The notes under the pieces: model-generated | What the model saw: the letters and a program-made list of their open reading frames with translations, nothing else | Database searches by the model: none | Told to the model about the DNA's origin: nothing | Translations under genes and position numbers: made by a program | Shown here: in pieces, positions 41,959 through 61,612 of the stretch | Numbering within the stretch: the first letter of the stretch is position 1 | How the letters are laid out: each line of letters starts with the position of its first letter | DNA from: a virus | Length of the DNA: 64,000 nt | Strand: one strand, 5' to 3' | Virus record (IMG/VR): IMGVR_UViG_3300032053_011398

Positions 41959-42032
41959 TGGCTGCCGAAGAAGGAGTTGCACCCTCACGAACTGGTTCAG
42001 AGCCAGCCATGCTGCTGTTACATCATTCGGCA
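41959..42032 (-). tRNA. tRNA-Gln(CTG)
   Basis: Hand-folded cloverleaf, loop CTCTGAA, CCA encoded. Confidence 0.85.
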
Positions 42033-42056
42033 AAGATAAAAGCCGGATACACGAGC

Positions 42057-42512
42057 CTACCGGCATTCCACTGACTCTGCTCGTAGAGCTGCAACGATTG
42101 CTCGTTGCACGGTGGGATCAACCGACCATTCGAGCACGATCTGAGAGAACGTGATCGGCTGATCCCGCCGCCCAAGAATTATGGCGTCCTTGGTGACGGT
42201 GGTGTTTTCCGCTGTAAACGATTTGTGACGGCCACGCAAGCTTAGCTTGCGGCAGTTGGGATACGATGTGTTAAACAAAACGTATCCATTCTTGACGCGA
42301 AAACCCTTTGAGGAAACAGCGTAAGACCGCCAGTGCTCACCTCCGCCGTTGTCAAAATGGAAGACGATGAAATCACCGGCCCGCAAAAAACGGGTGTTCC
42401 TGACCATCATTCCCATAAACACGTGCTCGTGCTTGCATGGGAAATTATCCAACGCATAGCCCAACGTCCGATCCAATTGCTGCTCCGGCGTCAAATAGGT
42501 TTTCTGTCTCAC
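42057..42512 (-). CDS. hypothetical protein
   Basis: 151-aa ORF in the array. Confidence 0.6.
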   Translation of the reverse strand: MRQKTYLTPEQQLDRTLGYALDNFPCKHEHVFMGMMVRNTRFLRAGDFIVFHFDNGGGEHWRSYAVSSKGFRVKNGYVLFNTSYPNCRKLSLRGRHKSFTAENTTVTKDAIILGRRDQPITFSQIVLEWSVDPTVQRAIVAALRAESVECR

Positions 42513-42520
42513 AATTAAAG

Positions 42521-42849
42521 AGTGCGGGCCGCTAGCACGCGACCCGCACCAGTTTTCAACGAAGCCTTTTAGCTTTGGCCGTCAGTAAACCCGGTGTCGT
42601 CAGCCTAATTCTGATGCTCTACCCCTGAGCTACAGGGCAGTGATTGGACTAACGAAATGCACTGCGAAATTGGCTGCCCCGGTGGGATTTGAACCCACGA
42701 CCTCAGTTTAATTGGACACCGCCTACTCACGACCCTTTCGTTGGTGGATGAGCCTTCGGGTAATAACCTAAGCCGTTAGCCTGAACTTTGAGCATTACCC
42801 TGAGCCTGGACAAGGCTTTCGCTTGCGCTACTCGCCCTACCCGAAATCG
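42521..42849 (-). ncRNA. structured RNA containing a circularly permuted tRNA-like domain (YrlA-like topology)
   Basis: T arm, 3' acceptor and CCA (42671-42706) precede 5' acceptor and D arm (42611-42639); closed by GGTGTC/GACACC. Confidence 0.75.
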
Positions 42850-43635
42850 TTAAATCTTGCCGTCGAACACGAAGCTCAGAACCTTGTTGCCCAGCTTCTT
42901 GTTGTGATCGACCTCTGCGTCGTTCGCACGGGAACGCGCACGCTTGAATGCCCGAACGAGCATTTCAGCCCGGTCCAGCATTTCCGCCTTGTGGGCGACG
43001 GTGATGAGGCTCGTCCATTCCTGCTCGGCCACGGTGCCGATGGGGACATCGACGTTCATCAGGTCAGCCTGTCCGGGGTGCTCCTTGGTCGGAGCAAACT
43101 TGACCACGATCTTCACGTCCTTCTTGGTGCGGGTCTTGGTCACGTCGCGGGCCTTGAAGTAGCCCTCGCCGCGCTGCGTGTCAGGCTGGAAGCCCTTGGC
43201 CGGATCGAGCGTGGGAATCGCCGCCACAAGCTGCTGAATCTCAGCGGCCCGCTTCTCCAGCTCCAGGAGGGCCGTGACGGGCACGCCCATCAGGAGCACG
43301 GTGCCAGCGTCGTCTTCGAGGATCACGTCGGCGCGGGCCTTGGTGTTCGTCTCGGCGACCTGGTAACTGGCGTCGAGCGCCTTCTGGAGCTTTTCCTTGA
43401 TCCAGTCCAGCTCTTTGTGGACGGTGGTCTGGATGTCGCAGATGACCTTGGTGCTCGCCTGCTCGGTTTCCACGCAGGGCGTGAAGACCTCTTTCTTTTC
43501 CTCGAAGTGATGGCGCTTCTTCGTGAAGGTTTCCACCAGATCGGTGCGGCATTTCGTGGCCTGGTTCTCCAGGTTCGTCTCCGCCGCAAGGAGTTCATGT
43601 AGTTTTGTCATTGTCGTCTTGCCTTTCTCCCGCAC
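42850..43635 (-). CDS. conserved hypothetical protein (MTKLHELLA...), directly upstream of the permuted RNA
   Basis: Strong codon bias, APTKEHPGQ motif; ATG at 43611 is a likelier start. Confidence 0.85.
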   Translation of the reverse strand: MREKGKTTMTKLHELLAAETNLENQATKCRTDLVETFTKKRHHFEEKKEVFTPCVETEQASTKVICDIQTTVHKELDWIKEKLQKALDASYQVAETNTKARADVILEDDAGTVLLMGVPVTALLELEKRAAEIQQLVAAIPTLDPAKGFQPDTQRGEGYFKARDVTKTRTKKDVKIVVKFAPTKEHPGQADLMNVDVPIGTVAEQEWTSLITVAHKAEMLDRAEMLVRAFKRARSRANDAEVDHNKKLGNKVLSFVFDGKI

Positions 43636-43709
43636 TAACCACAGAAGAACGTAACGGATCGGCCAGACCCATGCAATATAATTCGTAAACTATTTTACGT
43701 TCATCAAAA

Positions 43710-43784
43710 TGGCTCCCCCGGCAGGTTCCGCCCCTGCAACCGTCTGCTTCAAAGGCAGCCGCGCCACTGTTACGCCACGGGGGA
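43710..43784 (-). tRNA. tRNA-Gln(TTG)
   Basis: Cloverleaf, loop CTTTGAA. Confidence 0.8.
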
Positions 43785-43790
43785 ATAAAT

Positions 43791-43866
43791 TGGTGCCCCC
43801 GCCCGGAATCTCACCGGGAACCCTCCGGTTAAAGGCCGGATGCTCTGGACGTTGAGCTACGGAGGC
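43791..43866 (-). tRNA. tRNA-Lys(TTT)
   Basis: Cloverleaf, loop CCTTTAA (C33). Confidence 0.8.
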
Positions 43867-43870
43867 GAAA

Positions 43871-43955
43871 TGGTGCCAGCCGGGGGACTTGCACCCCCAA
43901 GGCTCACAGGCTCTCGACCTGTGGGGTCTGCTAATTCCCGCTTAACCAGGCTGGC
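43871..43955 (-). tRNA. tRNA-Leu(GAG), atypical
   Basis: Loop TCGAGAG; extended acceptor-D connector; short variable region. Confidence 0.7.
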
Positions 43956-44472
43956 GTCTTCCGCAACGATATGCAACTTGCGGAATTTCACTTTCAAAAT
44001 GGGCACCCGAAAGATTTGGCAGTAAGACCTCAAAGCGTTTGGTCTGCGGCGGCACCGGAGGTTTTTCCGGGTTGTTGGCTTCGTAGCGGTCAACAGCCTC
44101 CTTGGCGATTTGTTCCAGCTCGGCGCACGTCTTCTTCAGCTCCTCGATTTCGGCTTCCAGCTCGGATCGGCTTTTCTTCTTTTCGGCTTTGAGTTTTGCC
44201 CTGTCCGGCACCACCGCTGTCACGTCCCATAGCGCGGCGGTGAAGCCGGTGATGCTACAAATGCGCTCACCAACAACTTCGATCACACCCATTTTCTCCA
44301 GTTCGGAAGGGCGATTTCGCACGCTGTCGATCTGGTATTGGGGCATCTTTTGCGCGATTTCACCAGCCGTGAGCGGCCCGCCATTGTAGATGTGGTTGTA
44401 AACTTCTAGTTGTATGCCGCCCAGGATGCCCTGAATTTTGGCGAAAGCTTCGGCACTGGTCTTGCGTGTCAT
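43942..44472 (-). CDS. winged-HTH protein
   Basis: GPLTAGEIA..SVRNRPSELEKMGVIE. Confidence 0.75.
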   Translation of the reverse strand: MTRKTSAEAFAKIQGILGGIQLEVYNHIYNGGPLTAGEIAQKMPQYQIDSVRNRPSELEKMGVIEVVGERICSITGFTAALWDVTAVVPDRAKLKAEKKKSRSELEAEIEELKKTCAELEQIAKEAVDRYEANNPEKPPVPPQTKRFEVLLPNLSGAHFESEIPQVAYRCGRRQPG

Positions 44473-44485
44473 GCCCGATAGAACG

Positions 44486-44560
44486 TGGTTGGCCCGACCG
44501 GTAACGACCCGGTGACCTGACGATTATGAGTCGCCTGCTCTACGTCTGAGCTACGGGCCA
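44486..44560 (-). tRNA. tRNA-CAT (Met or Ile2)
   Basis: Cloverleaf, loop CTCATAA. Confidence 0.8.
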
Positions 44561-44571
44561 ATCGCTAAATA

Positions 44572-44661
44572 TGGCGGAAGGCGGAGGGCATCATCCTCAC
44601 CCCAGTTAAGGGGCCATCGGTTTAGCAAACCGTGACGGCCAAGCCAGCCGCTTCACCTTCC
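44572..44661 (-). tRNA. tRNA-Ser(GCT)
   Basis: Loop TTGCTAA, long variable arm, G73. Confidence 0.75.
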
Positions 44662-44722
44662 GAAATCCCAATTACTAATTCGGTATAAATTGGTAGCAAA
44701 TTAGTAATTGCGCCCCAAGGCG

Positions 44723-45343: not shown

Positions 45344-45494
45344 ATGCGCGACAAGCGCGGGCAAGGGTTTGCGCCAAAGACCCCCTTCAGGGAGACCGCT
45401 GCTCTACCAGGCTGAGATACGTGCCCTTTCAAGGCTGGATTTGAACCAGCGACCAACGGTTCTCAGACGCATTTAACCCGCGCATGTCGCGCAC
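45344..45494 (-). ncRNA. second circularly permuted tRNA mimic (YrlA-like)
   Basis: T arm GCTGGTTCAAATCCAGC precedes D arm TCTCAGCCTGGTAGAGC; long terminal helix. Confidence 0.72.
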
Positions 45495-45594: not shown

Positions 45595-46026
45595 TGGTGG
45601 AGCTGGCGGGGAGTTGAACCCCGCGTCTTTGACATGATCCGACGCACATCCACATGCTTCTTCCGGTCAAACCGATTGCAACAGATTAGGCAGGCCCATG
45701 ACCGGATAAACTCTGGCCTGTGCTGCATTTTGCTGAACCTTTATTAAACAGGGCTTCAGAACCCCTGTTTTACCTGCTGGTTACGCCCACACCCCGTAGC
45801 AGGTGTCAAAGGGTGGACGGTCTGGCGCATTAGGCCAGAACAGGTTCGGCATAGCCCGTGCGAGCCAGAACTTCGTCAGGGTTGGCGAAGATCGCAGCAA
45901 CCTGGGCCAGCAAACCGTCTTCATTGCTTTTGGCAGATGATTTTTGATGGAGAGATTATCGTGGCCGACCATCATCCACGGCATGTCGTAACGGCTTCAC
46001 GTATCAAATCGAAGCCCGGCAGCCCC
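45595..46026 (-). ncRNA. ssrA: tmRNA
   Basis: 5' GGGGCTG..TTCGA; 3' GACGCGGGGTTCAACTCCCCGCCAGCTCCACCA with G3-U70; internal tag ORF ending VLA. Confidence 0.93.
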
Positions 46027-46240: not shown

Positions 46241-46317
46241 TGGTTGCGGGGGCTGGATTTGAACCAGCGGCCTTCAGGTTATGGGCCTGATGAGCTACCA
46301 GGCTGCTCCACCCCGCG
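46241..46317 (-). tRNA. initiator-type tRNA-fMet(CAT)
   Basis: CGCGGGGTGGAGCAGCCTGGTAGCTC start, C1-A72 mismatch. Confidence 0.9.
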
Positions 46318-46412: not shown

Positions 46413-46496
46413 TGGTCGGCAGGAGGAGACTTGCACTCCCAAGGCTCAGCGTGTTTGAGGCGCTGGGGTCTGCTATTCCCTCTAAACCACCTGCCG
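46413..46496 (-). tRNA. tRNA-Leu(CAA), atypical
   Basis: Loop CTCAAAC; same extended connector as Leu(GAG). Confidence 0.7.
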
Positions 46497-46512
46497 AAAT
46501 AGCGCACGCCCC

Positions 46513-46588
46513 GTCGCGGTCAGCGGGACTCGCACCCGCAACTTCTGGTTTCTGAAACCAGCGACTCTGCTGATTGGCCTATCCCGGC
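46513..46588 (-). pseudogene. tRNA-Leu(CAG) with broken acceptor stem
   Basis: D, anticodon and T arms present; 3' strand does not pair with GCCGGGA; no CCA. Confidence 0.6.
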
Positions 46589-46592
46589 AAAT

Positions 46593-46670
46593 TGGTAGCG
46601 GCGACAGGATTTGCACCTGCACTGTCTTCGCTCTAAACGAAGTGCCTCCTGCTGGTTGGGCTACGCCGCC
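46593..46670 (-). tRNA. tRNA-Leu(TAG), short variable loop
   Basis: Loop TTTAGAG, A73. Confidence 0.78.
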
Positions 46671-46677
46671 GTCTAAA

Positions 46678-46761
46678 TGGTGCCAAGCCAGGGACTTGCA
46701 CCCTGAAGGCTCCGACGTTTTAAGGATCGGGGGTCTGCTATTCCCGCTTAACCAGCCTGGC
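46678..46761 (-). tRNA. tRNA-Leu(TAA), atypical
   Basis: Loop CTTAAAA; extended connector. Confidence 0.7.
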
Positions 46762-46935: not shown

Positions 46936-47011
46936 TGGTGCCCCAGGGGAGACTCCCACTCCCAACCAGCGGTTCCGAGGACCGCCGCGCTGATAATTGC
47001 GCCACTGAGGC
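46936..47011 (-). tRNA. tRNA-Arg(TCG)
   Basis: Loop CCTCGGA. Confidence 0.75.
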
Positions 47012-47750: not shown

Positions 47751-48506
47751 ATGGCTGAACCTCAAACTACACTAATCACTGTTTTTCACAATGGAATTCA
47801 TGCTCTTAAACTGCTGTGGAGGAGCTTTTCTAACGCTAACCCCGAACCCGCGCTATTTTGGTGCTACGACAATGCCAGCAACGACGGATCAGGATACTAC
47901 GCTAAATCTGTTTCCAACTATACGTTCAGGTCTTGCTGTAACTATGGCCACGGACGGGGCTTAGACACGCTATGTGCTAAGGTCCGCACGCCTTACACGC
48001 TCATCGCTGACGTTGATGTCGAATTTCTTCAACCAGCCACAGCAAGAATGATCGCAGAACTAAAAGGAACACCGTCAGCTCTCTGCACGGCTTATCCATC
48101 ACTGAAAGAGGAATGTGTTGTCGTCAATAATTACTTAGGATCAAATTTATCTGGACAAAAGCGCATAAACCCTTGCTGCGCTATGTTTGACACGCTCAAG
48201 CTGCAACAGGTACTAAAATACTTCAGTTTCGGAGTTTATGGGGGACCGGGTAAGTTTTACGACGTTGGAGCTATGATATACACGGCCAGTTTAGCGTGCA
48301 ATCTATCTGTCCTAGAACCAACCTGGATCAGGCAAGCGGTGCGGCACTACGGCGGCATCGGCGGCTATGTCTCCGGCGCATTTCCTAAAGACAGCCCAAA
48401 GTTCATAGCATCACAAAAAGCGTATAGCCTCATAGAGCAACGAGCAGCGAGCTACGCTGAACCCGGTCGAAAATTGAACGAGGCTATTTTTGAACTAGAA
48501 GCATAG
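47751..48506 (+). CDS. GT2-family glycosyltransferase
   Basis: YDNASNDGS, NYGHGRGLD, ADVDVEF; AT-richer. Confidence 0.8.
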   Translation: MAEPQTTLITVFHNGIHALKLLWRSFSNANPEPALFWCYDNASNDGSGYYAKSVSNYTFRSCCNYGHGRGLDTLCAKVRTPYTLIADVDVEFLQPATARMIAELKGTPSALCTAYPSLKEECVVVNNYLGSNLSGQKRINPCCAMFDTLKLQQVLKYFSFGVYGGPGKFYDVGAMIYTASLACNLSVLEPTWIRQAVRHYGGIGGYVSGAFPKDSPKFIASQKAYSLIEQRAASYAEPGRKLNEAIFELEA

Positions 48507-48510
48507 AACT

Positions 48511-49008
48511 ATGGACTTAAACAAAATACCCAGTGCGTGGAAAAACTTAGACAACTTCGCTTTCTGGTTAGTAGCCGCTTTCAAACCTGACGTTATTGTC
48601 GATTTGGGGGTTGACCACGGCTATTCAACGATAGTCCTGGCCATGCCGGGCATAGGCACTGTTTACGGCATAGACGCGGTGATGTGCCGTGCCGAGCCTT
48701 TCATAGCAGAAGCCAACCTTAAAAACATCATTCTGATTAAAGGAGACTTTTCCACTTTAGCTTCAACTTGGGCGCAGCCAATAGACATCCTGCACATTGA
48801 CGGCAACCACGATTATGAAAGCGTGCAGAGAGACTTCACCGTCTGGTCCCCTTTCGTTAGAAAGGGCGGAATCATTCTCTTACACGACACAATATCGTTC
48901 CCTGATGGACCAGGACGTGTTTTTTCGGACGTAACTTGGCCAAAATTCAACATCGACAAGACGCGGCAGCAAACATGCGGACTCGGAGTTATTCTTAAAA
49001 CGCAGTAG
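48511..49008 (+). CDS. class I SAM methyltransferase (Methyltransf_24-like)
   Basis: VDLGVDHGYST, IDILHIDGNHDYE, GGIILLHD. Confidence 0.88.
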   Translation: MDLNKIPSAWKNLDNFAFWLVAAFKPDVIVDLGVDHGYSTIVLAMPGIGTVYGIDAVMCRAEPFIAEANLKNIILIKGDFSTLASTWAQPIDILHIDGNHDYESVQRDFTVWSPFVRKGGIILLHDTISFPDGPGRVFSDVTWPKFNIDKTRQQTCGLGVILKTQ

Positions 49009-49070
49009 TCGCCAGCAGTCAGAGCGTGAAGGACCGAACAGGTTCAGGCAAAAATCTCTGAAACACATGC

Positions 49071-50063
49071 CTAGCCCATCAGTTCTTCGGCGTAAGCGCA
49101 CAAAACCTTGACTTCAAAACTTCCGTAAAGGTTACTGGGCACCCTACAGGGCCGATAAGGCAGCTTAAGAAGCTGGGCGGCTACGCGGGCTGGATCGGCG
49201 CTGGTTTTGTAGATTACACTCAAGGGATCGCCCGGTTTATAGTCCAGAGGTATAGGCGTGTAGTCGATGGGTATGTCGATGACGACACCACCGATTTCTT
49301 GGGCGTGCTCCACGCAGCTTGGACTGCCCGACGCGACAGCAACCAGGCAACCCGCCGCCGCCGCTTCGGACATGAGCCGTGAGTGCCCCTCCACGGCGGA
49401 TGGATAGAAGAACACCTTCGATTGACCCAGCAAGGACCAAAGTTCAGCTTTAGACTTGCCTGAAATGTTCTGTGGGGCGATGCCGCCTTGCCGCCTGGCC
49501 TCCTCCAACACCAATCCCGCAAACCAATCACCCTTGGCTGGCGAACAGGATGCCGTAGCCACGTCGTAAATCCTCTCGCCGTGATAGTGCTGGATCGCTT
49601 CCACGTTCACGCCCGAAGGCAGCCATTCGACTCGGCGACAGTAGGGCGCGAAGTAGCGCACGTCACTAGCGGCGGCGGTCAGCAACAAATCTATCTGGCT
49701 CAAACAGTTGATACGATCCGCTGTCCACAGTTCCGGCCCAAACCCTCGAACTCTCCACGCTATCTGCCTGGCTTTCCACCCGCCCGACTTTAAACACTTC
49801 AAGCCAATGTCAGGCCAACTGCTAAACAAAATCAAATCCGCAGTAACCGATGGATACTCTCCCTTTACGCAAATGAACTCAACGCCATCTTGCACGGTAT
49901 TTCGAGAGAGGTCATAAGTGCCGAGCACTGCAATTACCCGGTGACCTCGCCGAGCCATTTCTTTAGCGAACGTGATCGGTGTAAACGCATATTCGTCAAA
50001 AGCGTTCACGGCTAACCAAGTTTCTAATAGGTTGGGATAGCGACATTCCACTACGATTGTCAT
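49071..50063 (-). CDS. GT-B (GT4-like) glycosyltransferase
   Basis: RRGHRV, PSGVN, KG, FFYPSAVEG..MSEAAAAGC. Confidence 0.82.
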   Translation of the reverse strand: MTIVVECRYPNLLETWLAVNAFDEYAFTPITFAKEMARRGHRVIAVLGTYDLSRNTVQDGVEFICVKGEYPSVTADLILFSSWPDIGLKCLKSGGWKARQIAWRVRGFGPELWTADRINCLSQIDLLLTAAASDVRYFAPYCRRVEWLPSGVNVEAIQHYHGERIYDVATASCSPAKGDWFAGLVLEEARRQGGIAPQNISGKSKAELWSLLGQSKVFFYPSAVEGHSRLMSEAAAAGCLVAVASGSPSCVEHAQEIGGVVIDIPIDYTPIPLDYKPGDPLSVIYKTSADPARVAAQLLKLPYRPCRVPSNLYGSFEVKVLCAYAEELMG

Positions 50064-50602: not shown

Positions 50603-50678
50603 TGGTGGGTTCGATGGGCGACGATCCCACAACATCCTGATTAAGAGTCAGGTGCTCTACCAATTGAGCTACGAACCC
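50603..50678 (-). tRNA. tRNA-Lys(CTT)
   Basis: Loop CTCTTAA. Confidence 0.88.
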
Positions 50679-50682
50679 AAAA

Positions 50683-50757
50683 TGGTCGCTGTGCCCGGAC
50701 TCGCACCGGGAACCGTCACCTTATGAGGATGCCGCGCTGCTATTGCGCCACACAGCG
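50683..50757 (-). tRNA. tRNA-CAT (Met or Ile2)
   Basis: Loop CTCATAA. Confidence 0.8.
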
Positions 50758-50762
50758 GAAAA

Positions 50763-50840
50763 TGGAGCCTCCACCCGGACGTGCGCCGAGCTATCGCCCA
50801 TACCAAGGGCGTGCATCGCTGCTGCCTATGCTTTGGAGGC
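50763..50840 (-). tRNA. tRNA-Thr(GGT)
   Basis: Loop TTGGTAT. Confidence 0.8.
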
Positions 50841-50841
50841 G

Positions 50842-50915
50842 TGGAGCGAGTGACCGGAATCGCACCGGTATCTGATGCTTGGAAGACACCAGCTCTACTA
50901 TTGAGCTACACTCGC
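50842..50915 (-). tRNA. tRNA-Gly(TCC)
   Basis: Loop CTTCCAA, U73. Confidence 0.88.
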
Positions 50916-51292: not shown

Positions 51293-51367
51293 TGGAGTCC
51301 GGCCAGGGGATCGCACCCTGCACCACCGCTTTGCAGGCGGGGCCGTTCGCTAGCTCGGTCGCCGGAC
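51293..51367 (-). tRNA. tRNA-Cys(GCA)
   Basis: Loop CTGCAAA, U73. Confidence 0.82.
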
Positions 51368-51376: not shown

Positions 51377-51453
51377 TGGGGCCAGTAGGCGGACTCGCAC
51401 CGCCGAATACCGGTTTACGAAACCGGCCCTGTAGCTGCTGGAGGCATACTGGC
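51377..51453 (-). tRNA. tRNA-Thr(CGT)
   Basis: Loop TTCGTAA. Confidence 0.78.
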
Positions 51454-51458: not shown

Positions 51459-51532
51459 TGGTAGGGGATAACGGTGCCGCCCCGCTGCCTCGTCGGTGTA
51501 AACGACGCACGCTGCTGTTACGCCAATCCCCC
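51459..51532 (-). tRNA. tRNA-Val(TAC)
   Basis: Loop TTTACAC. Confidence 0.82.
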
Positions 51533-51618: not shown

Positions 51619-51690
51619 AAGTTCATCCTTCCAAAAATGTAAACTTTTTAATTCCGTTCTATAACATTGTGGTCAGTGCGGGTTGAAATT

Positions 51691-52452
51691 ATGAGTGAAC
51701 CGTTCAAGGCGCAAGTCGAAAAGTTCTTCCTGGAACATGTGCTCCACGAACCCCCACACTGCTATAATCCGTTCGTGACCATGCACTGCCAGCGTTACGT
51801 CCACTCCGTGCTGTTCGCTGAGTTGGAACTGAAAGCGGCCAAGGTGGTCCTGGAAGTGGGCGGCGGATGGGGGGCGTTTACGGAGGGCTTGCGGGCCTTG
51901 TTTCCCAGCCTGGTGATCGAAGGCTCCTCCGCTGATCTCCGCACGGTCTTCACCAACAAGGTGGACTACTATGACTTCATCCTGAACATGGAAGTCATCG
52001 AGCACATAAAAGACCTTGAAATTCCGGGAGATTGGCGTCAGCGGGATGCCTACATCGGTGACGGCCTGAAAAATTTTGTAAACACTTGCTACCAATGCCT
52101 GAAACCGGACGGCAAGATGTTCCTGACCACGCCAAATCTCAGCTCCGTTAAAAGTCTCTGGCGGGTAATGAATTACAGCGACCCGTTCTCCTATGAGATG
52201 CACTTCCGCGAGTTTTCGATGAACGACCTGTTGAGAATACTGGTCGAAGCCGGGTTCCAGATCGAACGCTATACGACCATGCAGTGCTACGAGCAAAACC
52301 AGGTTCCGCCCGAAGCCAAGGCCCGCATTCTAAGCTTTTTGCGGGAGATGAAACTGTCCACAAACAACCGCGAAGAAGTCCAGTTCGTCATGGCCGTCAA
52401 GTCCGCAGTTAAGATGGCTGCGGTTTCCCAAGGTCCAGTGAACTCCCCGTAA
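51691..52452 (+). CDS. class I SAM methyltransferase
   Basis: VLEVGGGWG, YDFILNMEVIEHI, LKPDGKMFLTTPN, HFREFS. Confidence 0.9.
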   Translation: MSEPFKAQVEKFFLEHVLHEPPHCYNPFVTMHCQRYVHSVLFAELELKAAKVVLEVGGGWGAFTEGLRALFPSLVIEGSSADLRTVFTNKVDYYDFILNMEVIEHIKDLEIPGDWRQRDAYIGDGLKNFVNTCYQCLKPDGKMFLTTPNLSSVKSLWRVMNYSDPFSYEMHFREFSMNDLLRILVEAGFQIERYTTMQCYEQNQVPPEAKARILSFLREMKLSTNNREEVQFVMAVKSAVKMAAVSQGPVNSP

Positions 52453-52468
52453 ATTAGTTCTGGCCACT

Positions 52469-53206
52469 ATGCTGACCATCGGAATTTTGAACTGTCACCG
52501 CCAAGCCAATGTCGTTAAGCTGGTCAAGCGTTACTCTGCCATGCCCCTCGTTTCGCGGATCACCGTCTGGAGCAGTCCGCCCGGCGACTTCCGCATCACC
52601 GACAATCCAAAGGTTTTGACGGCTACCTGTGCGCCGGATTGGGGCATGTATGCCCGCTTTCAGTCGGTGCTCAACGCGCCCACGGAGTGGATCATGACGG
52701 TCGATGACGATCTATTCGTCCCGGAGGAGTCGATCAAAACGATGCTCGACGCCCGGATGAAGGACAAGGACAAAATGGTCAGCGGCATGTTCGGCAGACG
52801 GCCTTCCAGAACTCAAGAGTTTGCCGTGTTCCATGATATTGAAGACACGGTGTGCGAAATCGTCGTAGGCCGCGTTATGGTGTTTCACGTCAGCCTGATT
52901 AGCCGCTTCTTCGACGTGGTGCGGAATCCGAAGTGGGAAGAACTCTACGCCCAGGGGCGTCAAGCGGGCTGGAGCAAGACCACCAACATCGAAGACATCA
53001 TCATGAGCTATGTGGCAATGCAGACCGCTCCCGGCAGGCTCAACCAGATTCACAAATTGGGTTGCCAGGAACTAGATGCCCCATTCCCGGTTTGGACGAT
53101 GCGGAATTTCTTTAAGTATCGCCAGGCGGGCATGACCTTCACCCAGCAGTTCTTCAACAACTGGTCGCATAGCGAACACCCCACCGGATACGGGTTAAGG
53201 CGCTGA
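52469..53206 (+). CDS. GT-A fold glycosyltransferase (GT64/EXTL-like)
   Basis: ITVW, ARF, MTVDDDL, NIEDIIMS. Confidence 0.7.
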   Translation: MLTIGILNCHRQANVVKLVKRYSAMPLVSRITVWSSPPGDFRITDNPKVLTATCAPDWGMYARFQSVLNAPTEWIMTVDDDLFVPEESIKTMLDARMKDKDKMVSGMFGRRPSRTQEFAVFHDIEDTVCEIVVGRVMVFHVSLISRFFDVVRNPKWEELYAQGRQAGWSKTTNIEDIIMSYVAMQTAPGRLNQIHKLGCQELDAPFPVWTMRNFFKYRQAGMTFTQQFFNNWSHSEHPTGYGLRR

Positions 53207-53208: not shown

Positions 53209-53288
53209 TGGCGCTCCCACCAGGATTCGCACCTGGAGCCTTCTCCTTCGCAGGGAGATGTGCAGATTACTAATTACACCTTGGGAGC
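53209..53288 (-). tRNA. tRNA-Arg(GCG)
   Basis: Stem TCTCC/GGAGA, loop CTGCGAA. Confidence 0.8.
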
Positions 53289-53295
53289 TTCAAAA

Positions 53296-53372
53296 TGGTG
53301 CTCACGGCAAGAATTGCACTTGCAACCTGCGGTTTCGGAGACCGCCGCTCTATCTACTTGAGCTACGCGAGC
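53296..53372 (-). tRNA. tRNA-Arg(CCG)
   Basis: Loop CTCCGAA. Confidence 0.88.
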
Positions 53373-53376
53373 AAAA

Positions 53377-53453
53377 TGGCAGCCCAGACGGGTTCCGCCC
53401 CCGTGATCTCCTGTGTGAAAAACAGGCGTGTTGACTAGCTACACTACTGGGCC
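53377..53453 (-). tRNA. tRNA-Glu(TTC)
   Basis: Loop TTTTCAC. Confidence 0.82.
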
Positions 53454-53458: not shown

Positions 53459-53537
53459 TGGTGTTCGTGGACGGACTCGCACCGTCTAATTATCCAGTAT
53501 GAGAGACTGGCCGCTCGGCTACTTCGCGCTCACGAAC
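53459..53537 (-). tRNA. tRNA-Glu(CTC)
   Basis: Loop CTCTCAT; overlapped by the 3' end of the HNH ORF. Confidence 0.78.
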
Positions 53538-54032
53538 TTTGTTTCTTCCTGAAAAAGTTGGTTGCTGGCTGTTACAATTCGGACACAGCAGCCTTAAATT
53601 TTCTGCGCGGTGATCGTCCCTAACGCCATTTTTATGATCCAGAATCAAAACTAACGGTTTACTGTTCCACGTGGGCTTTAAGCCACAAATAGCGCACTCG
53701 TTCCCAAGTATGCCTTGCTCTATAAGCCTGTGCTTCAAATGACCACGGCAATAAGTAGAGTGCTCGACCATAATCTCCTCTAAAAGCAACAGAGTTTTGG
53801 GCGATCCAAACCTTCTGCCTGTGTTTGAGCCGCGCCCTATGGGTATGTGTGAAATATCAATTCCGTCTTGTTGACAGCGTTGACGAAGTGTTTTGTAAAA
53901 GGAAGAACACCCGGCATATTTAAGACTTCGTGCAATCGCCAAAACCGATCCAGATTTTTTCACTACGGCCAAAAGTTCTTCTTTAGGCATTTTCCATATT
54001 CTGCCCGTTTTTATCGTATTCATAATACTCAA
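53490..54032 (-). CDS. HNH homing endonuclease
   Basis: CAICG..W..KPLVLILDHKNG..D.RAENLRLLCPNCNSQ. Confidence 0.92.
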   Translation of the reverse strand: MSIMNTIKTGRIWKMPKEELLAVVKKSGSVLAIARSLKYAGCSSFYKTLRQRCQQDGIDISHIPIGRGSNTGRRFGSPKTLLLLEEIMVEHSTYCRGHLKHRLIEQGILGNECAICGLKPTWNSKPLVLILDHKNGVRDDHRAENLRLLCPNCNSQQPTFSGRNKVREREVAERPVSHTG

Positions 54033-54040
54033 GAACCCGA

Positions 54041-54084: not shown

Positions 54085-54161
54085 TGGTGCCAAAGACCGG
54101 GATTGCACCGGTGACCTCCTGTTTTTCAGACAGGCGCTACTACTAACTGAGCTACTTTGGC
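54085..54161 (-). tRNA. tRNA-Phe(GAA)
   Basis: Loop CTGAAAA. Confidence 0.88.
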
Positions 54162-54167
54162 AAAGGA

Positions 54168-54244
54168 TGGTAGCCACGACAGGCTTTGCTCCTGTGGCCT
54201 TCACCTTATCAAGACGCTGCTCTGCTGAACTGAGCTACGTGGCT
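54168..54244 (-). tRNA. tRNA-Ile(GAT)
   Basis: Loop TTGATAA. Confidence 0.82.
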
Positions 54245-54248
54245 AAAA

Positions 54249-54335
54249 TGGCGGCTCCGCGAGGACTCGCACCCCGACCGGTTTTACCCGCACTCTGTTT
54301 TCGAGACAGGGGCATTACTATTCTGCCACGGAGCC
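54249..54335 (-). tRNA. tRNA-Ser(CGA)
   Basis: Loop CTCGAAA, long variable arm, G73. Confidence 0.82.
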
Positions 54336-54351
54336 AAAAATGTTTACAAAT

Positions 54352-54426
54352 TGGTGCTGCTGATAGGATTCACACCTATGTTTTCCCGCTTAGGAGGCAG
54401 GTGCCTGATTTCTCGGCCACAGCAGC
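54352..54426 (-). tRNA. tRNA-Arg(CCT)
   Basis: Loop CTCCTAA. Confidence 0.8.
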
Positions 54427-54430
54427 AAAT

Positions 54431-54506
54431 TGGCACCCCCGCCAGGACTCCCACCTGGATCAGACCGCTTAGAAAACGGTCGCTCTTGTGATTGAGCTAC
54501 AGGGGC
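54431..54506 (-). tRNA. tRNA-Arg(TCT)
   Basis: Loop TTTCTAA. Confidence 0.82.
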
Positions 54507-54513
54507 TTACAAA

Positions 54514-54589
54514 TGGCTGCCAGGGTCCGGCTCGCACGGACATCCCTTCGATTAACAGTCGAATGCTCGACTAATTGAGCTACCTGGCA
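54514..54589 (-). tRNA. tRNA-Asn(GTT)
   Basis: Loop CTGTTAA, G73. Confidence 0.88.
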
Positions 54590-54592
54590 AAA

Positions 54593-54668
54593 TGGTCAGC
54601 GCGAAGGGCTTTGCTCCCTCGGCCTCCCGGCCCCGAACCGGGCGCTCTGCTGGCTGAGCTACGCGCTG
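54593..54668 (-). tRNA. tRNA-Pro(CGG)
   Basis: Loop TTCGGGG, C1-G72. Confidence 0.85.
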
Positions 54669-54689
54669 ATTCCGCACTGGCCACAGAAC

Positions 54690-54765
54690 TGGTCGGGCTG
54701 GCGAGAATTGCACTCGCGGCTTCCGCACCCCCAGTGCGGCGCTCTGCTGGCTGAGCCACAGCCCG
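54690..54765 (-). tRNA. tRNA-Pro(GGG)
   Basis: Loop CTGGGGG. Confidence 0.85.
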
Positions 54766-54769
54766 AAAA

Positions 54770-54845
54770 TGGTCAGGGCGGGGAGTTTCGCAATCCCGGC
54801 CTCCTGCTCCCAAGGCAGGCGCTCTAACTTCTGAGCTACGCCCTG
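54770..54845 (-). tRNA. tRNA-Pro(TGG)
   Basis: Loop CTTGGGA. Confidence 0.85.
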
Positions 54846-57257: not shown

Positions 57258-58661
57258 TCAGCGCAGATCGGGAATCCAGTCCTTGCGGTCATCGGTATCG
57301 TAGCCGACGATCCGCATAGCCAGGCAGATGTCATACCAGACCAGCGCCCGGACATCGGTGCTCGAATTGCGGAGCACGTAGGCCGGGTGAAAAGTGGGAA
57401 CGAGCGGAGTGCCATCCAGGTCTTTGACGTGGCCGCGCACTTTGCTGATGGCATCGGCCTTGCCAGTCAAGCCCTGCAACGCGGTCGCCCCCAGAGCAAT
57501 GATGATCTTGGGCTGGATGATCTGGATTTGCTCCTTGAGGTAGGGGAGACAGGCTGCCATTTCCTCCGGCTCAGGCTTCCGGTTGCCTTCATCGGCATCC
57601 GGGCGGCACTTGAGCACATTGGCAATATAGACCTGATCGCGGGTGAACCCCATCAGGCGGATCACGGCGGTCAAAAATTGCCCGGCGCGGCCACAATTAT
57701 GAACTGCAAATCCATTGGCAATGAACGTGCCGCCCGTAGTTTTTATGTCAACCACATCTCGGATTCCAAGTGGCTCCTTACCTAGAACTTTCACTTGGTG
57801 CGTCTTGAATTGAGGAGGATAACGCCGGATTAAATCAAGAAACTTTGGTAATAACCTCGAAGGCTGTATCCTCCCGATAAACTCCATTTGAGCGCAAATG
57901 CCACCCGTCAGATAATGGCGCTCGCAAACAACCCCCTTATGGACTGATTCTTCCGCACGGTAACGAGTCTTGAAGCCAAGAACTTTGAGTTTTGAGAGTG
58001 CTTCTAAACAAGTCGCACCGGCATTTTGCGTGAATCCAACGCCGGTATAGCCGCTCGATTTCTTGTGGGTCACGTGGCCTTCACCGTTGTAAAATCCAGC
58101 AATCCACCCTGCATCATACGAATTATCGAATTTCCATGGAACATTAAACAGAGCTAACTGCGAACTTCGCTTTTCTCCGCAGCACATAAGCTGGCCGATG
58201 CGAAGCCAACGCCTGCCACTTTGGCCGTGATGCGTCAAAAGAGCATGATCGGCGGTTCCGGCAATATCACCAGAATTGGTCAAAATTCGGAAGACCGGCT
58301 GCCTTGAGCTGTGCGTGCTGATAACTGTCGCGCTGCCCATTCGGCGTAATGCCCGCCCGGAAGCACCAATTCCGGTTACAACCGCTTGCTCGTCAAAGGA
58401 CATTATTTGATCCCCTGGTTTTACCCCACCCAAGCTTTTCCATCTCAGGTCAGCCATTAAAACGGGAGTATCCGGCACCAAACAAAAAGGTTCGCCCAGC
58501 CGGTCTTCATCCTTGCCTGGAGCCTCGCCAACGAACATGAACTCCGCGTCGGGATCACCAGCGCCAAACACCGTTTGCGTCCTGGATTGAACCAGGTGCG
58601 GGCAGCGGCGGCACCGGATGACCCTGTATGAGAGGGCATGTAACTGTTCCTGCTTCGTAAC
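57258..58661 (-). CDS. family 4 uracil-DNA glycosylase interrupted by an intein
   Basis: CRRC, FVGEAPG..ED..GEPF|CGRAG, YIANVLKCRP, NRKP, PTFHPA; start codon uncertain. Confidence 0.9.
   Translation of the reverse strand, partial: VTKQEQLHALSYRVIRCRRCPHLVQSRTQTVFGAGDPDAEFMFVGEAPGKDEDRLGEPFCLVPDTPVLMADLRWKSLGGVKPGDQIMSFDEQAVVTGIGASGRALRRMGSATVISTHSSRQPVFRILTNSGDIAGTADHALLTHHGQSGRRWLRIGQLMCCGEKRSSQLALFNVPWKFDNSYDAGWIAGFYNGEGHVTHKKSSGYTGVGFTQNAGATCLEALSKLKVLGFKTRYRAEESVHKGVVCERHYLTGGICAQMEFIGRIQPSRLLPKFLDLIRRYPPQFKTHQVKVLGKEPLGIRDVVDIKTTGGTFIANGFAVHNCGRAGQFLTAVIRLMGFTRDQVYIANVLKCRPDADEGNRKPEPEEMAACLPYLKEQIQIIQPKIIIALGATALQGLTGKADAISKVRGHVKDLDGTPLVPTFHPAYVLRNSSTDVRALVWYDICLAMRIVGYDTDDRKDWIPDLR
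57696..58484 (-). mobile_element. 263-aa intein with LAGLIDADG-like motif
   Basis: CLVPDTPV, TADH, GWIAGFYNGEG, TFIANGFAVHN followed by Cys. Confidence 0.93.
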
Positions 58662-58679
58662 GCAGGGTAGAACGGAAAA

Positions 58680-58756
58680 CGGCGGACACGACCGGACTCG
58701 CACCGGCTGACTTCCCCGTGACAGGGGGTTGATTCGACTCCTTCATCTCCGTGTCC
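58680..58756 (-). tRNA. tRNA-Asp(GTC)
   Basis: Loop CTGTCAC, G73; ends CCG rather than CCA. Confidence 0.78.
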
Positions 58757-58758
58757 AG

Positions 58759-58846: not shown

Positions 58847-58857
58847 GTATTTAAAGC

Positions 58858-59391: not shown

Positions 59392-59446
59392 CTATTGACA
59401 TTGGCGCTAGGGCTTCTTCGGTCTCGACGACCGCCCCAGCACAAAT

Positions 59447-59520
59447 TGGCACGGAGTGGGAGTGCTGCCCTCCCCGAAGCTGGTTTTGGAGACCGGCCTG
59501 CACAAGCTGGTGCCCTCCGT
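59447..59520 (-). tRNA. tRNA-Trp(CCA)
   Basis: Loop CTCCAAA, G73. Confidence 0.72.
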
Positions 59521-59523
59521 AAA

Positions 59524-59937
59524 CTACCAAAACAGTTCCTCCAGGTCGCGTATTCCCTTCTCCTGCTGGTTCTTAGCCCGTTCAAATCTTACAGTCAAGG
59601 TGCTATGCCCTGCAAAATCATTTGGTTTAAGACATGCAACTCTATCTACCGCAGGGACATATACCAGGATAAGATCAATTTGATCGTTGGTGTATAAGTG
59701 GCTGCTGCGCTTTTTGCCGCGTTCCCTTCCTGGTCGCAATCCAATCGTAACACTACCTTTAGAATGGCTGCACCGGCTATTGACATACTTTACCTGAGCA
59801 CGCAACAGTTCTGTGCCCGTGTCGATAATAAGGTCATATCGGCATGGAATTGAAGGGCGGCTTGCGACATAGCCTTTCTCTACGGCACGAAGTTGAACGC
59901 GCAATTCTGCAATTTCACCTTTTTAATTTGGAGTCAT
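59524..59937 (-). pseudogene. PD-(D/E)XK endonuclease with in-frame TAA at codon 5
   Basis: MTPN*KGEIAE..RYDLIID..RAQVK..Y..DQID. Confidence 0.75.
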
Positions 59938-59952
59938 AGCTCCTGTAACTAC

Positions 59953-59983
59953 ACAAGCACTCTGCTAATTGAATCACCTGCTC
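59953..59983 (-). pseudogene. orphan 5' half of a tRNA
   Basis: GAGCAGG-TG-ATTC-AATTAGCA-GAGT-G-CTTGT running into the GTAGTTA motif. Confidence 0.6.
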
Positions 59984-60076
59984 AACCCACACATGATGCC
60001 AGTTGGCGGGCTGTCCGATCTTGACCGTCCCGCACCGGCAATCCGTGCGTCGGTCTCGCGTTAGAGCAGGTAAAGA

Positions 60077-60274
60077 CTAGAGTTGGTGATGATGGCGCAC
60101 GCGGCCAACTCGCGCCAGCGTGCAAAGTTTTTTAAGCCGTGATCGAAGCTGCATCAGCTCCTCGAATCGTTTCTGGTTTTTCAAGGCTTCTGAAACCAGC
60201 CGTTGTTTTTCCGCTGCGGATGGCTTGCCGATCAACCCCCGCAGCGCCAATTCAAAAAAGGCGTTATCTCTCAC
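60077..60274 (-). CDS. small hypothetical protein
   Basis: 65-aa helical ORF. Confidence 0.45.
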   Translation of the reverse strand: MRDNAFFELALRGLIGKPSAAEKQRLVSEALKNQKRFEELMQLRSRLKKLCTLARVGRVRHHHQL

Positions 60275-60316
60275 ACCTGTATATCCGCGTTGACGGCAAC
60301 TTTTCTTCGCTCAAAA

Positions 60317-60390
60317 TGGTGGAACCACGGGGAGTCGCACCCCGATCTATGCGTTGCGAACGCACCGCTCTGCTATTGAGCTATGGCCCC
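60317..60390 (-). tRNA. tRNA-Ala(CGC)
   Basis: G3-U70, loop TTCGCAA. Confidence 0.88.
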
Positions 60391-60401
60391 GTAACTAAAA
60401 G

Positions 60402-61259
60402 GTGAAACCGCGCTGCGTTTCCATTTTTCCGACCAACCGCTGCAACGCCCGGTGCTACTACTGCGCCTACCAGACGAACTACGCCCTGGCCGACGCGGAG
60501 GCGCTGTGCCGGAAAGGTGACGCGCTCAACCGCGACCTGCTGCTCAAGTTCATGGACGAGCTGCCGGTCAACAACATCGAAATCTCAGGAGGCGGCGAGC
60601 CGCTGGCGCACCCTGACTTTGCTTGGTTCGCCGGGGAGCTGGTCGCCCGCAACATCGGGGCCAAGCTCATCACCAACGGCATTCTGCTCGATGGCCCTGC
60701 CGCTGAAGCTGCGGCCAAGTTGAGCTACATTGAGCTATCGGTGAATTACTGGGACCACCGAAGCTTCGCCGAGACTCGCGGCCTGCCGGAGTTCTGGTTC
60801 GACATCGTGACGGCCAACATCATGAAACTGGCCCGGAGCAGGCCATCCTGCGTGCTGGGGGCCAAGGTGGTCCTGACCAGCCGGAACTACCCGTCGCTCC
60901 AGAAAATTCGTGAATACCTGATGCAGTTCGGGATTACCCGGCTGGTGGTCACGCCGGGCTACAGCCGCGATCCAAAAGAAGTCCCGCCGCCCGAAGTCTT
61001 CGGGCGCGACCGGTTGGCCCGCGCCAAGCCAAAGTGCCTTTGTTGCCAGCGCCAGCTCGACCATCCGGTCGTGGGCGCGGACGGCCACATCTACGCCTGC
61101 TGCTACTTCACCTACGTCCCCGGCATGAGGATCGGGAATCTGGCCGCGCAAAAGCTGGCGGACGTTCTGGACAACCCCGTCTTCGATCAGGGCCTTTGCG
61201 CCAAGGTCGAGCAGGTCATCACGGACTACCGGAACGGCGTCGTCACCGCCTTCCCCTGA
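60402..61259 (+). CDS. radical SAM protein with SPASM/twitch domain
   Basis: CNARCYYC, ISGGGEP, ITNG, DGHIYACC..IGNL. Confidence 0.92.
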   Translation: MKPRCVSIFPTNRCNARCYYCAYQTNYALADAEALCRKGDALNRDLLLKFMDELPVNNIEISGGGEPLAHPDFAWFAGELVARNIGAKLITNGILLDGPAAEAAAKLSYIELSVNYWDHRSFAETRGLPEFWFDIVTANIMKLARSRPSCVLGAKVVLTSRNYPSLQKIREYLMQFGITRLVVTPGYSRDPKEVPPPEVFGRDRLARAKPKCLCCQRQLDHPVVGADGHIYACCYFTYVPGMRIGNLAAQKLADVLDNPVFDQGLCAKVEQVITDYRNGVVTAFP

Positions 61260-61265
61260 ACAAAC

Positions 61266-61372
61266 TGGCGCGGGAGTGGGCCGTCAGCCCACCTGACCAC
61301 GCTGGTCGCGTCAAAACAGCGGCTTGGCGTCTGCCCCTGGTGTAGGACGCTTGGCGAAGCCTTCGCTCCCGC
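61266..61372 (-). ncRNA. unclassified tRNA-like RNA (107 nt)
   Basis: GCGGGA/TCCCGC stem plus GCCA end stacked on a T-like hairpin; extra arms. Confidence 0.55.
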
Positions 61373-61378
61373 AAAAAT

Positions 61379-61454
61379 TGGTGGAAGTGAAGGGACTCGC
61401 ACCCTCAACCCCCTGCTTGCAAGGCAGGCGCTCTACTAATTGAGCTACACCCCC
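61379..61454 (-). tRNA. tRNA-Ala(TGC)
   Basis: G3-U70, loop CTTGCAA. Confidence 0.9.
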
Positions 61455-61459
61455 GAAAT

Positions 61460-61533
61460 TGGAGCGGGTGAGCGGTAACGATCCGCCGTATCAGCGTTGG
61501 CAACGCCGCGCTCTGCCATTGAGCTACACCCGC
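61460..61533 (-). tRNA. tRNA-Gly(GCC)
   Basis: Loop TTGCCAA, U73. Confidence 0.88.
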
Positions 61534-61535
61534 AT

Positions 61536-61612
61536 TGGGGCGAACGAGGAGATTTGCACTCCCAACGGTCGGACTCACAATCCGAGGCTCTGCTAATTGA
61601 GCTACGTTCGCC
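61536..61612 (-). tRNA. tRNA-His(GTG)
   Basis: G-1/C73, loop TTGTGAG. Confidence 0.88.

Follow-up and report, generated by a model that had tools for sequence, protein, structure and literature searches.

Altered tRNA elbows with matching D-loop and T-loop changes in a phage tRNA array

We analyzed a 64,000-nt stretch of viral DNA (IMG/VR virus record IMGVR_UViG_3300032053_011398), hereafter called the window. On its minus strand, at 41959-61612, lies an array of tRNA and small-RNA genes with protein genes interspersed. In this array the elbow of the tRNA, where the D-loop contacts the T-loop, departs from the canonical form in every tRNA except the initiator, and the changes in the two loops are matched. 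The array was found to contain 29 firm tRNAs, four candidates, two degenerate copies, a transfer-messenger RNA (tmRNA) and two YrlA-like RNAs. They were called with ARAGORN, with Rfam and with a covariance model trained on the window's own tRNAs. ARAGORN reported 27 minus-strand tRNAs within 41959-61611, all 27 with an encoded CCA, and missed six of the firm or candidate tRNAs in the array. Rfam added Val(TAC), an Arg(GCG)-like tRNA, one degenerate copy, the tmRNA and two sub-threshold YrlA-like matches. The array-specific model added candidates for Asp(GTC), Cys(GCA) and two Leu-like tRNAs, none of which was detected otherwise, as well as the degenerate copy at 53459-53532. Twenty-eight firm tRNAs scored 39.5-66.6 bits with Rfam RF00005 (gathering score 29). 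The 29th, Leu(GAG) (43871-43951), was seen by ARAGORN only; Rfam gave nothing for it even with a cutoff of E ≤ 1. The members of the array are as follows.

41959-42032, minus: tRNA-Gln(CTG), T-loop TGCAACT, D-loop AACAGCA (A18 G19 / G55 C56)
42588-42722, minus: permuted YrlA-like RNA (38.3 bits with Rfam RF02553, under the gathering score), T-loop TTCAAAT, D-loop GG
43710-43951, minus: block of three, Gln(TTG) (T-loop GGCGGAA, D-loop AG), Lys(TTT) (T-loop TGAGATT, D-loop AACGTCCA; A56, possible U19) and Leu(GAG) (43871-43951; T-loop TGCAAGT, short variable arm)
44486-44560, minus: tRNA-Met(CAT), T-loop GTCGTTA (G54 U55 ... U58), D-loop AGACGTA
45368-45479, minus: another permuted tRNA mimic of the YrlA type (32.6 bits with Rfam RF02553, likewise under the gathering score), canonical elbow
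45595-46026, minus: tmRNA (Rfam RF00023, 88.9 bits), canonical T-loop GGTTCAACTCC
46241-46317, minus: initiator-type tRNA-Met with a C1xA72 mismatch, T-loop TTCAAAT, D-loop GG
46413-46761, minus: Leu block, TGCRA T-loop in all members, made up of the next four entries
46413-46496, minus: candidate Leu(CAA)-like tRNA
46515-46588, minus: degenerate tRNA copy, found by Rfam
46593-46670, minus: Leu(TAG)
46678-46761, minus: candidate Leu(TAA)-like tRNA
46936-47011, minus: tRNA-Arg(TCG), T-loop TGGGAGT, D-loop AATTATCA (A18, U19-G56 wobble)
50603-50915, minus: block of Lys(CTT) (50603-50678; ATCGTCG with GG; 54-58 swapped to A-U, U55 retained), Met(CAT) (TGCGAGT with AG) and Gly(TCC) (TGCGATT with AG)
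51293-51367, minus: candidate Cys(GCA), U73, T-loop TGCGATC
51377-51453, minus: Thr(CGT), T-loop TGCGAGT
51459-51532, minus: Val(TAC), T-loop GGCGGCA, from Rfam
53209-53453, minus: block of Arg(GCG)-like, Arg(CCG) (T-loop TGCAATT) and Glu(TTC) (T-loop GGCGGAA), D-loop AG in all three
53209-53288, minus: the Arg(GCG)-like tRNA of this block, A8, T-loop TGCGAAT, from Rfam
53459-53532, minus: degenerate tRNA copy, from the array-specific model
54085-54845, minus: nine tRNAs, Phe, Ile(GAT) (AGCAAAG), Ser(CGA), Arg(CCT) (TGTGAAT with A19), Arg(TCT) (54431-54506; TGGGAGT, C19), Asn, Pro(CGG) (AGCAAAG), Pro(GGG) and Pro(TGG)
58680-58756, minus: candidate tRNA-Asp(GTC), T-loop TGCGAGT, G8, 3' tail GCCG, array-specific model alone
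60317-60390, minus: tRNA-Ala(CGC), G3:U70, T-loop TGCGACT, D-loop AATAGCA
61379-61612, minus: block of Ala(TGC) (61379-61454; TGCGAGT with AG), Gly(GCC) (ATCGTTA with GG) and His(GTG) (TGCAAAT with AG; G-1 encoded at 61612, C73)

In cytoplasmic tRNAs, U55 (pseudouridine 55), C56, G18 and G19 are considered nearly invariant, and the elbow that they form is contacted by many enzymes, by RNase P, by T-boxes and by the ribosome. Among the 33 firm and candidate tRNAs of the window, positions 54-56 read TGC in 20, GGC in three, AGC, TGG and ATC in two each, and TGT, TGA, GTC and TTC in one each. TTC was absent from all 32 non-initiator tRNAs (28 firm and four candidates). G55 was present in 29 of the 33 tRNAs and was nearly always paired with A18 instead of G18. 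The tRNAs with TGCRA (20), GGCGG (3) or AGCAA (2) T-loops all had AG in the D-loop. A T-G-N-R-A T-loop was found in 23 of the 33 (20 with C56 and three with another base at 56), and only one tRNA, the initiator, had both G18 G19 and U54 U55 C56. These counts agreed with an earlier sequence-only reading of this DNA, which had claimed that TTC was confined to fMet, the tmRNA and the two permuted RNAs, and that most of the others combined G55 (TGCRA, GGCGG, AGCAA) with D-loop AG. It was also right that Lys(CTT) and Gly(GCC) retain U55 and GG; the T-loop of both is ATCGT, with the 54-58 pair swapped to A-U. The swapped 19-56 pairs that it had proposed for Arg(TCT) (G56 with AC) and Arg(CCT) (U56 with AA) were borne out by the sequences. 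Arg(TCG) combined TGGGA with AT, which gives a U19-G56 wobble, and Lys(TTT) combined TGAGA with a possible U19. Swapped 19-56 pairs (C-G, A-U and U-A) were carried by Arg and Lys tRNAs. Met(CAT) at 44486-44560 was the sole U55 tRNA of the array without GG in its D-loop.

The two loops were found to covary. In the window, three tRNAs had GG with U55, 23 had G55 without GG and one had U55 without GG (Fisher test, P = 0.0014); the P value became 2.4e-10 once the tRNAs of three related phages joined those of the window. Our alignment took in 150 tRNAs, drawn from one genomic array, the window and the three related phages. Within it, pairing in the four helices was 95-99.6%, with double changes at every pair, and the covariation score was 0.863, compared with 0.187 for shuffled and at most 0.12 for slid partners. 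In this alignment, 19-56 was GC in 87 tRNAs, CG in nine and AU in two, and 54-58 was UA in 108 and AU in 12. The D-loop was off by one base in many rows of both the MAFFT and the covariance-model alignments, by which the 19-56 pairing (72%) was underestimated. Therefore, alignment-free shuffle tests were used for 18-55 and 19-56. Under a register-free rule, the D-loop dinucleotide matched positions 55-56 in 24 of 27 window tRNAs versus 14.1 in shuffled sets, and none of 2000 shuffles reached the observed value.

A larger sample was obtained with an A18-type D-arm query, TAGCTCAAT(N)AGYAGAGC, which matched at least 120 loci in IMG/VR and at least 120 in a one-genome-per-species GTDB set. The 18-55 counts were made on 1587 tRNAs (1473 unique) in the loci listed, from which the tRNAs matching the search pattern had been removed. 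D-loops with AG only had G55 in 438 cases versus U55 in 19, and those with GG had U55 in 898 versus G55 in 37. When the tRNAs of these loci were pooled with those of the window and the related phages (1549 unique), 59 of the 64 tRNAs without C56 had a complementary base available for position 19, compared with 41.7 in shuffled sets. Matched T-loop and D-loop combinations were TTT/GA, TTA/GT, TTG/GC, TGG/AC, and TGA with AT or CT. It follows from such clean combinations that 18-55 (G-U, A-G) and 19-56 (G-C, C-G, A-U, U-A) are two independent contacts, each internally matched.

The sequence-only reading had argued that the covariation pointed to function rather than decay. This was well supported by the paired stems, the compensatory changes, the 18-55 and 19-56 covariation and the retained identity elements. 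The latter include G3:U70 in Ala, G-1:C73 in His, C1:G72 with A73 in Pro, U73 in Gly, U1:A72 with G73 in Gln and Asn, a long arm with G73 in Ser, and A73 in Leu. Decay into pseudogenes was ruled out for the bulk of the array and accepted for 46515-46588 and 53459-53532, whose acceptor stems are poor.

Some members of the array are unusual outside the elbow. The near-invariant U8 is replaced by A8 or G8 in 53209-53288, 51293-51367 and 58680-58756. The Leu tRNAs at 43871-43951, 46413-46496, 46593-46670 and 46678-46761 have short variable arms in place of the bacterial long arm and D-loops of 10-15 nt, and two Leu tRNAs have apparent 9-nt anticodon loops or a 31-39 mismatch. The Asp candidate at 58680-58756 ends in GCCG, not GCCA, and overlaps the start of a uracil-DNA-glycosylase open reading frame (ORF). 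The tmRNA has an unusually long insertion in its tag region; judged by eye, the tag frame has about 34 codons and ends in ...PVLA. In the YrlA-like RNAs the T-arm, acceptor and D-arm modules are in permuted order, and the one at 42588-42722 lies directly downstream of a gene for a DUF7873 protein (42850-43635).

Similar variants had been considered possible in other tRNA arrays, and we saw them in the arrays of three related jumbo phages and in 38 or more genomic ones. The phages are IMG/VR contigs of 238, 120 and 127 kb, with arrays of 18-24 ARAGORN tRNAs and a ligase 48-65% identical to that of the window. In the four phages together, TTC occurred in five of 92 tRNAs, and three of these five were initiator-type. 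The solutions differ between phages: for 19 of the 27 anticodons common to at least two phages, the 54-56 triplet is not the same. Arg(TCT), for example, has AC/TGG, AT/TGA, AC/TGG and GC/TTG in the four phages, and Gly(GCC) has GG/ATCGT, AG/TGC, AG/TGC and AG/AGC. As far as sequences can tell, the common denominator is the absence of U54-U55-C56 by any compensable route, not G55 itself.

The genomic arrays are at least 38 loci with at least five tRNAs and at least 60% G55. Among those listed, 36 of 38 belong to Verrucomicrobiota, and the other two to a Limnocylindrales genome and a Planctomycetota genome. In 45 Verrucomicrobiota loci among the matches listed, G55 was present in 356 of 394 tRNAs. 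The distribution within the phylum is sporadic, as the D-arm pattern was found in only one of 400 other sampled Verrucomicrobiota genomes. These data point to Verrucomicrobiota as the host group of the phage, some members of which carry the same kind of G55 array. A host whose own tRNAs shared the elbow would have contradicted the sequence-only reading. We checked this on a proxy genome, a Prosthecobacter (G001) with an array: its dispersed housekeeping tRNAs were canonical (GG with TTCRA) in 20 of 20 cases, and G55 was present in 12 of the 13 tRNAs of its array.

Among cultured phages (INPHARED), no close relative of the window was found, and an exact 40-mer taken from it had no match in IMG/VR or JGI metagenomes. 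Gordonia phage OneUp was considered as a cultured phage with similar tRNAs and rejected, since its tRNAs are fully canonical; other BLAST matches reflected generic tRNA similarity. Pattern matches in Priestia, Paenibacillus, Bacillus, Algoriphagus and Roseibium were not tRNAs. In two Nostoc metagenome-assembled genomes (L124:7747-7820 and L154:5713-5786), a solitary amber-reading tRNA with anticodon CTA adjoins a canonical tRNA-Phe and has a variant elbow (D-loop AATAGTA, T-loop TGCGATT).

This distribution bears on whether any factor selected against TTC. Constraint on mobile tRNAs might be weak, so that chance elbow changes were fixed together with their partners and spread with the array lineage. 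The restriction of the variants to a horizontally moving lineage (36 of the 38 arrays listed are from Verrucomicrobiota, with one match in 400 other genomes) would fit such drift, as would the presence of 19-56 swaps in otherwise canonical phage tRNAs. However, the loss of TTC is directional (32 of 32 non-initiator tRNAs here and 87 of 92 tRNAs in four phages), and tRNAs were almost never found to have returned to the canonical form, one clearly accepted by the host machinery. Moreover, the isoacceptor lineages appear older than the elbow change. Compensated drift therefore seems quite unlikely to us. On the age of the lineages, the window tRNAs had an identity of 0.68 to housekeeping tRNAs for the same amino acid versus 0.59 to other array tRNAs (18 of 21 cases). 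This suggests, weakly because identity elements inflate similarity within a family, that the change occurred in parallel across isoacceptor families and not in one odd ancestor.

How could such elbows fold? T-loop motifs are also present in rRNA, RNase P and riboswitches, where they normally combine a U:A reverse-Hoogsteen 'handle' with a GNR turn; the G of this turn holds a phosphate in a clamp and forms a bond with the base that intercalates, and the 'U-clamp' of tRNA is the rarer form (PMC2615604). In these motifs the U:A pair can be replaced by C:A, A:A or G:G (PMC2615604). By analogy, TGCRA with A18 would be a version of the mainstream T-loop motif, in which A18 takes over the role of G18 as the base bonding G55 in a G-clamp T-loop, and CGCGA, AGCAA and GGCGG would also have precedents. 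The outer 19-56 pair is recognized mostly through stacking (PMC4810234), so its swaps would be tolerated. The elbow might in this way have been rebuilt in structurally matched ways.

The reading that we prefer, to which we give a probability of about 0.45, is that the array encodes functional tRNAs with a compensated elbow that has been selected against U54-U55-C56, with a Cash-type T-loop tRNase as the likeliest, although unproven, agent. The array would be part of a mobile back-up translation and RNA-damage module, and the loss of UUC would keep its tRNAs from a host factor that reads U54/U55, for which such a tRNase of the Cash/Schlafen type is the leading candidate. Cash is a CRISPR-associated Schlafen antiviral nuclease that makes its main cut in the T-loop immediately 5' of U55; it targets UUC, and a single change of U54 or U55 blocks cleavage (PMC13462974, published in July 2026). 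The authors left open whether phage tRNAs are Cash targets. Its specificity (UUC, a cut 5' of U55, dependence on U54/U55) is exactly the motif lost from the array tRNAs. We ranked escape from a T-loop-reading factor first because the purged motif is the Cash target and because the arrays stand in an RNA-damage context, which in the window consists of two Y-RNA-like genes and the tmRNA.

The sequence-only reading had proposed escape from elbow- or T-loop-recognizing nucleases. The fit between Cash specificity and the lost motif favors this part of it, and the following points weigh against it and against our reading. UUC is retained in the initiator, the tmRNA and the YrlA-like RNAs, as well as in the initiators of two related phages. 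A nuclease cutting every UUC T-loop would still stop initiation; since the initiators are exempt in all three phages that have one, the factor may be one that sees elongators alone. No T-loop nuclease was linked to the host, which is itself only inferred; Cash was characterized as a Chloroflexi enzyme in E. coli (PMC13462974), whereas the array phage probably infects Verrucomicrobiota. Schlafen-domain genes were no commoner in array-bearing genomes (two of five) than in controls (five of 14). TTC was kept in 735 of 953 tRNAs of other viral contigs among the matches listed, so any pressure would be lineage-specific. The Anabaena array for which charging is documented is almost wholly canonical, so those data concern canonical elbows. 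Finally, the A18-G55 geometry proposed above would be one derived from other RNAs and not seen in a tRNA. We know of no structure of an A18/G55 tRNA.

The sequence-only reading had also claimed independence from the T54 and pseudouridine-55 enzymes. This follows from chemistry, because G55 cannot be converted to pseudouridine. In the reading that we prefer, the inability of TrmA and TruB to act on the array tRNAs would be a side effect. It might instead be the selected trait. The variants would then fold stably without m5U54, Psi55, Gm18 and m1A58, and tRNAs made in a burst, in an infection or under translational stress, would be usable at once, with no competition for TrmA, TruB and TrmH; escape from a nuclease would not be what was selected. 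G55, A54 and A18 abolish the substrates of TruB, TrmA and TrmH, respectively (PMC7912444), G-clamp T-loops are the common stable form in rRNA and riboswitches, and translational stress induces an array of a related kind in Anabaena (PMC8421152). We nevertheless consider this unlikely, since it leaves unexplained why orthologues switch among non-TTC solutions, including TTG with GC, in which U54 and U55 are both kept, and why the phage initiator has the modification-dependent form.

The proteins that accompany the arrays suggest two further explanations. The window has a GC content of 56% and is phage-like, with a major head protein, a prohead protease, a UvsX-like recombinase, an SbcC-like protein, an NAD-dependent ligase and inteins. 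Two HNH-like ORFs accompany the array:

41318-41917, minus: HNH-like endonuclease ORF at the array edge
53490-54032, minus: second HNH-like ORF, within the array

Homologues of the first, 44-48% identical, adjoin G55 arrays in 22 other loci listed. About 40 window ORFs were compared with Pfam and PHROGs, and the matches included glycosyltransferases, methyltransferases, HNH, PD-(D/E)XK and radical SAM proteins, an intein-bearing uracil-DNA glycosylase, a ligase and recombination genes. Among these ORFs, no tRNA-modifying, tRNA-repair or RNA nuclease candidate was found in the 64-kb window, and neither Ro60 nor RtcB was found there. In the 240 loci listed, RtcB was present in 11 and Ro60/TROVE in 8-9, interleaved with G55 arrays; the loci with RtcB or Ro60 include L141, L159, L195, L217 and L184 of Verrucomicrobiota. 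In two related phages, Ro60 genes (G004:205564-206628 and G005:61615-62553) are likewise located within the array. This association suggests that the arrays may be part of an RNA-repair or quality-control island.

It is conceivable that the elbow is a mark of self, and that tRNAs with the altered form are spared by a nuclease of the element itself that destroys the canonical tRNAs of the host, or preferred by a processing or repair enzyme of its own. HNH, RtcB and Ro60 genes do travel with the arrays, and several ORFs of the window array are of no known function. We doubt this strongly, given that the 64-kb window yielded no RNA nuclease or tRNA-modifying candidate and that the hosts of chromosomal arrays rely on canonical tRNAs. 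Selection might also act on the DNA, if the conserved GGTTCGAATCC box of tRNA genes were targeted by recombination, integrases or homing endonucleases; the altered boxes would then shield the array, and the D-loop changes would only repair the RNA. No proteins are linked to the arrays more often than HNH endonucleases of the homing type (15-22 loci among those listed), and T4 SegB, cited in PMC8421152 as reported to cut inside tRNA genes, provides a precedent. However, escape would be cheaper at positions 57, 59 and 60 than at 54, 55 and 56, where the actual changes are and where they are costliest for the RNA, and the Anabaena array has an HNH gene yet keeps canonical boxes. We regard this as very improbable.

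Other protein genes of the window are described here for completeness. The 796-residue array ORF had no relative in INPHARED or IMG/VR, and its Atlas matches were viral hypothetical proteins only. At 57258-58703 (minus strand), a protein of the uracil-DNA-glycosylase family is split by a LAGLIDADG-like segment, and at 3770-6430 (minus strand) an 886-residue ORF has Hint/intein and LAGLIDADG domains; both are probably intein-bearing genes. Glycosyltransferase and methyltransferase genes lie among the tRNA genes (47751-50063 and 51667-53206) and also upstream (22131-23042, 31145-32431, 33219-35789 and 36079-36645).

If selection against U54-U55-C56 by a T-loop-reading factor is the true explanation, no natural alternative elbow would have been known before in cytoplasmic tRNAs of bacteria, and no phage tRNAs that escape a defence at the T-loop. 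The array would also offer a direct, testable answer to the question, left unanswered in 2026, of whether phages use tRNAs of their own against Schlafen nucleases that cut the T-loop. A wider form of this view, in which a mobile array lineage of Verrucomicrobiota and jumbo phages uses interchangeable isosteric elbows, built on a G-clamp T-loop with A18 or on a swapped 19-56 or 54-58 pair, in an arms race with T-loop tRNases from which the initiator is exempt, is put forward only tentatively. The hundreds of apparently functional tRNAs with A18/G55 or with swapped 19-56 or 54-58 pairs amount to a natural mutagenesis series, which separates the structural features of the elbow from those kept for partners that read it. 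They might be used as scaffolds that bypass elbow-modifying enzymes. For annotation, it matters that such tRNAs can be expected to score lower with standard tRNA models or to escape detection entirely.

Several known systems resemble the array in part. L-arrays (Santamaria-Gomez et al. 2021, PMC8421152; Tran et al. 2016, PMC4758250) likewise consist of dozens of supernumerary tRNAs for most amino acids. Like the phage array, they encode CCA, have an HNH endonuclease linked to them and include class-I-like Leu tRNAs whose D-loops are long; Leu tRNAs with a short variable arm and a long D-loop are also found in the Anabaena pCC7120delta array. L-arrays and G55 arrays are both sporadic in distribution, and Verrucomicrobia are among the phyla listed as L-array carriers (PMC8421152). 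As for the traits by which L-arrays are defined, there are about 33 genes here, an HNH gene is linked, and the array of the Prosthecobacter genome (G001) is supernumerary to a dispersed canonical set. The elbow differs, however: 23 of 24 ARAGORN tRNAs of the Anabaena L-array are canonical, whereas every non-initiator tRNA of the window is altered, and elbow changes are not mentioned in the L-array papers that we consulted. The one G55 tRNA of the trn operon on pCC7120delta of Nostoc PCC 7120 is Glu(CTC), with T-loop TGCAACT (L261:3332-3409). The charging and polysome data from Anabaena were considered as proof of G55 function and rejected, since the array is canonical except for this tRNA, and the main text of PMC8421152 does not state whether Glu(CTC) was among the charged tRNAs. 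If it is one of the 23 charged Anabaena tRNAs, it would be the first direct evidence of a functional G55 tRNA.

A second likeness is to the phage tRNAs that evade anticodon nucleases (van den Berg et al. 2023, PMC10264068; Azam et al. 2024, PMC11555353). They similarly differ at the sites that a tRNase reads and supply tRNAs as a counter-defence, through mutations in the anticodon loop; T-loops are not discussed in these two papers. The array change, in contrast, lies in the elbow of T-loop and D-loop, where compensation is needed in a second loop, and escape would here be an interpretation and not an observation. Natural tRNAs without the canonical elbow nucleotides can be active, as illustrated by tRNAPyl and type II mitochondrial tRNAs, in which G18 G19 and T-Psi-C are missing (PMC7609411), and the array tRNAs may be analogous. 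In those tRNAs the loops are shrunken or do not interact, and the partners are dedicated ones; the array tRNAs, in contrast, have loops of normal size and, as the covariation shows, keep the D-loop/T-loop contact. The closest structural parallel is with G-clamp motifs (UA_handle with GNR; Jaeger et al. 2009, PMC2615604). These share U-G-N-R-A with an intercalating purine, and their 1-5 pairs C:A, A:A and G:G match the array variants CGCGA, AGCAA and GGCGG, but they sit outside tRNAs. Natural A18/G55 tRNAs were not described in the literature that we surveyed, which covered tRNA arrays, non-canonical tRNAs, evasion by phage tRNAs, modification of the T-loop and the elbow itself; U55G occurs there as a laboratory mutation only. 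Mobile and phage tRNA arrays are thus known, and what appears to be new is the compensated elbow and its spread.

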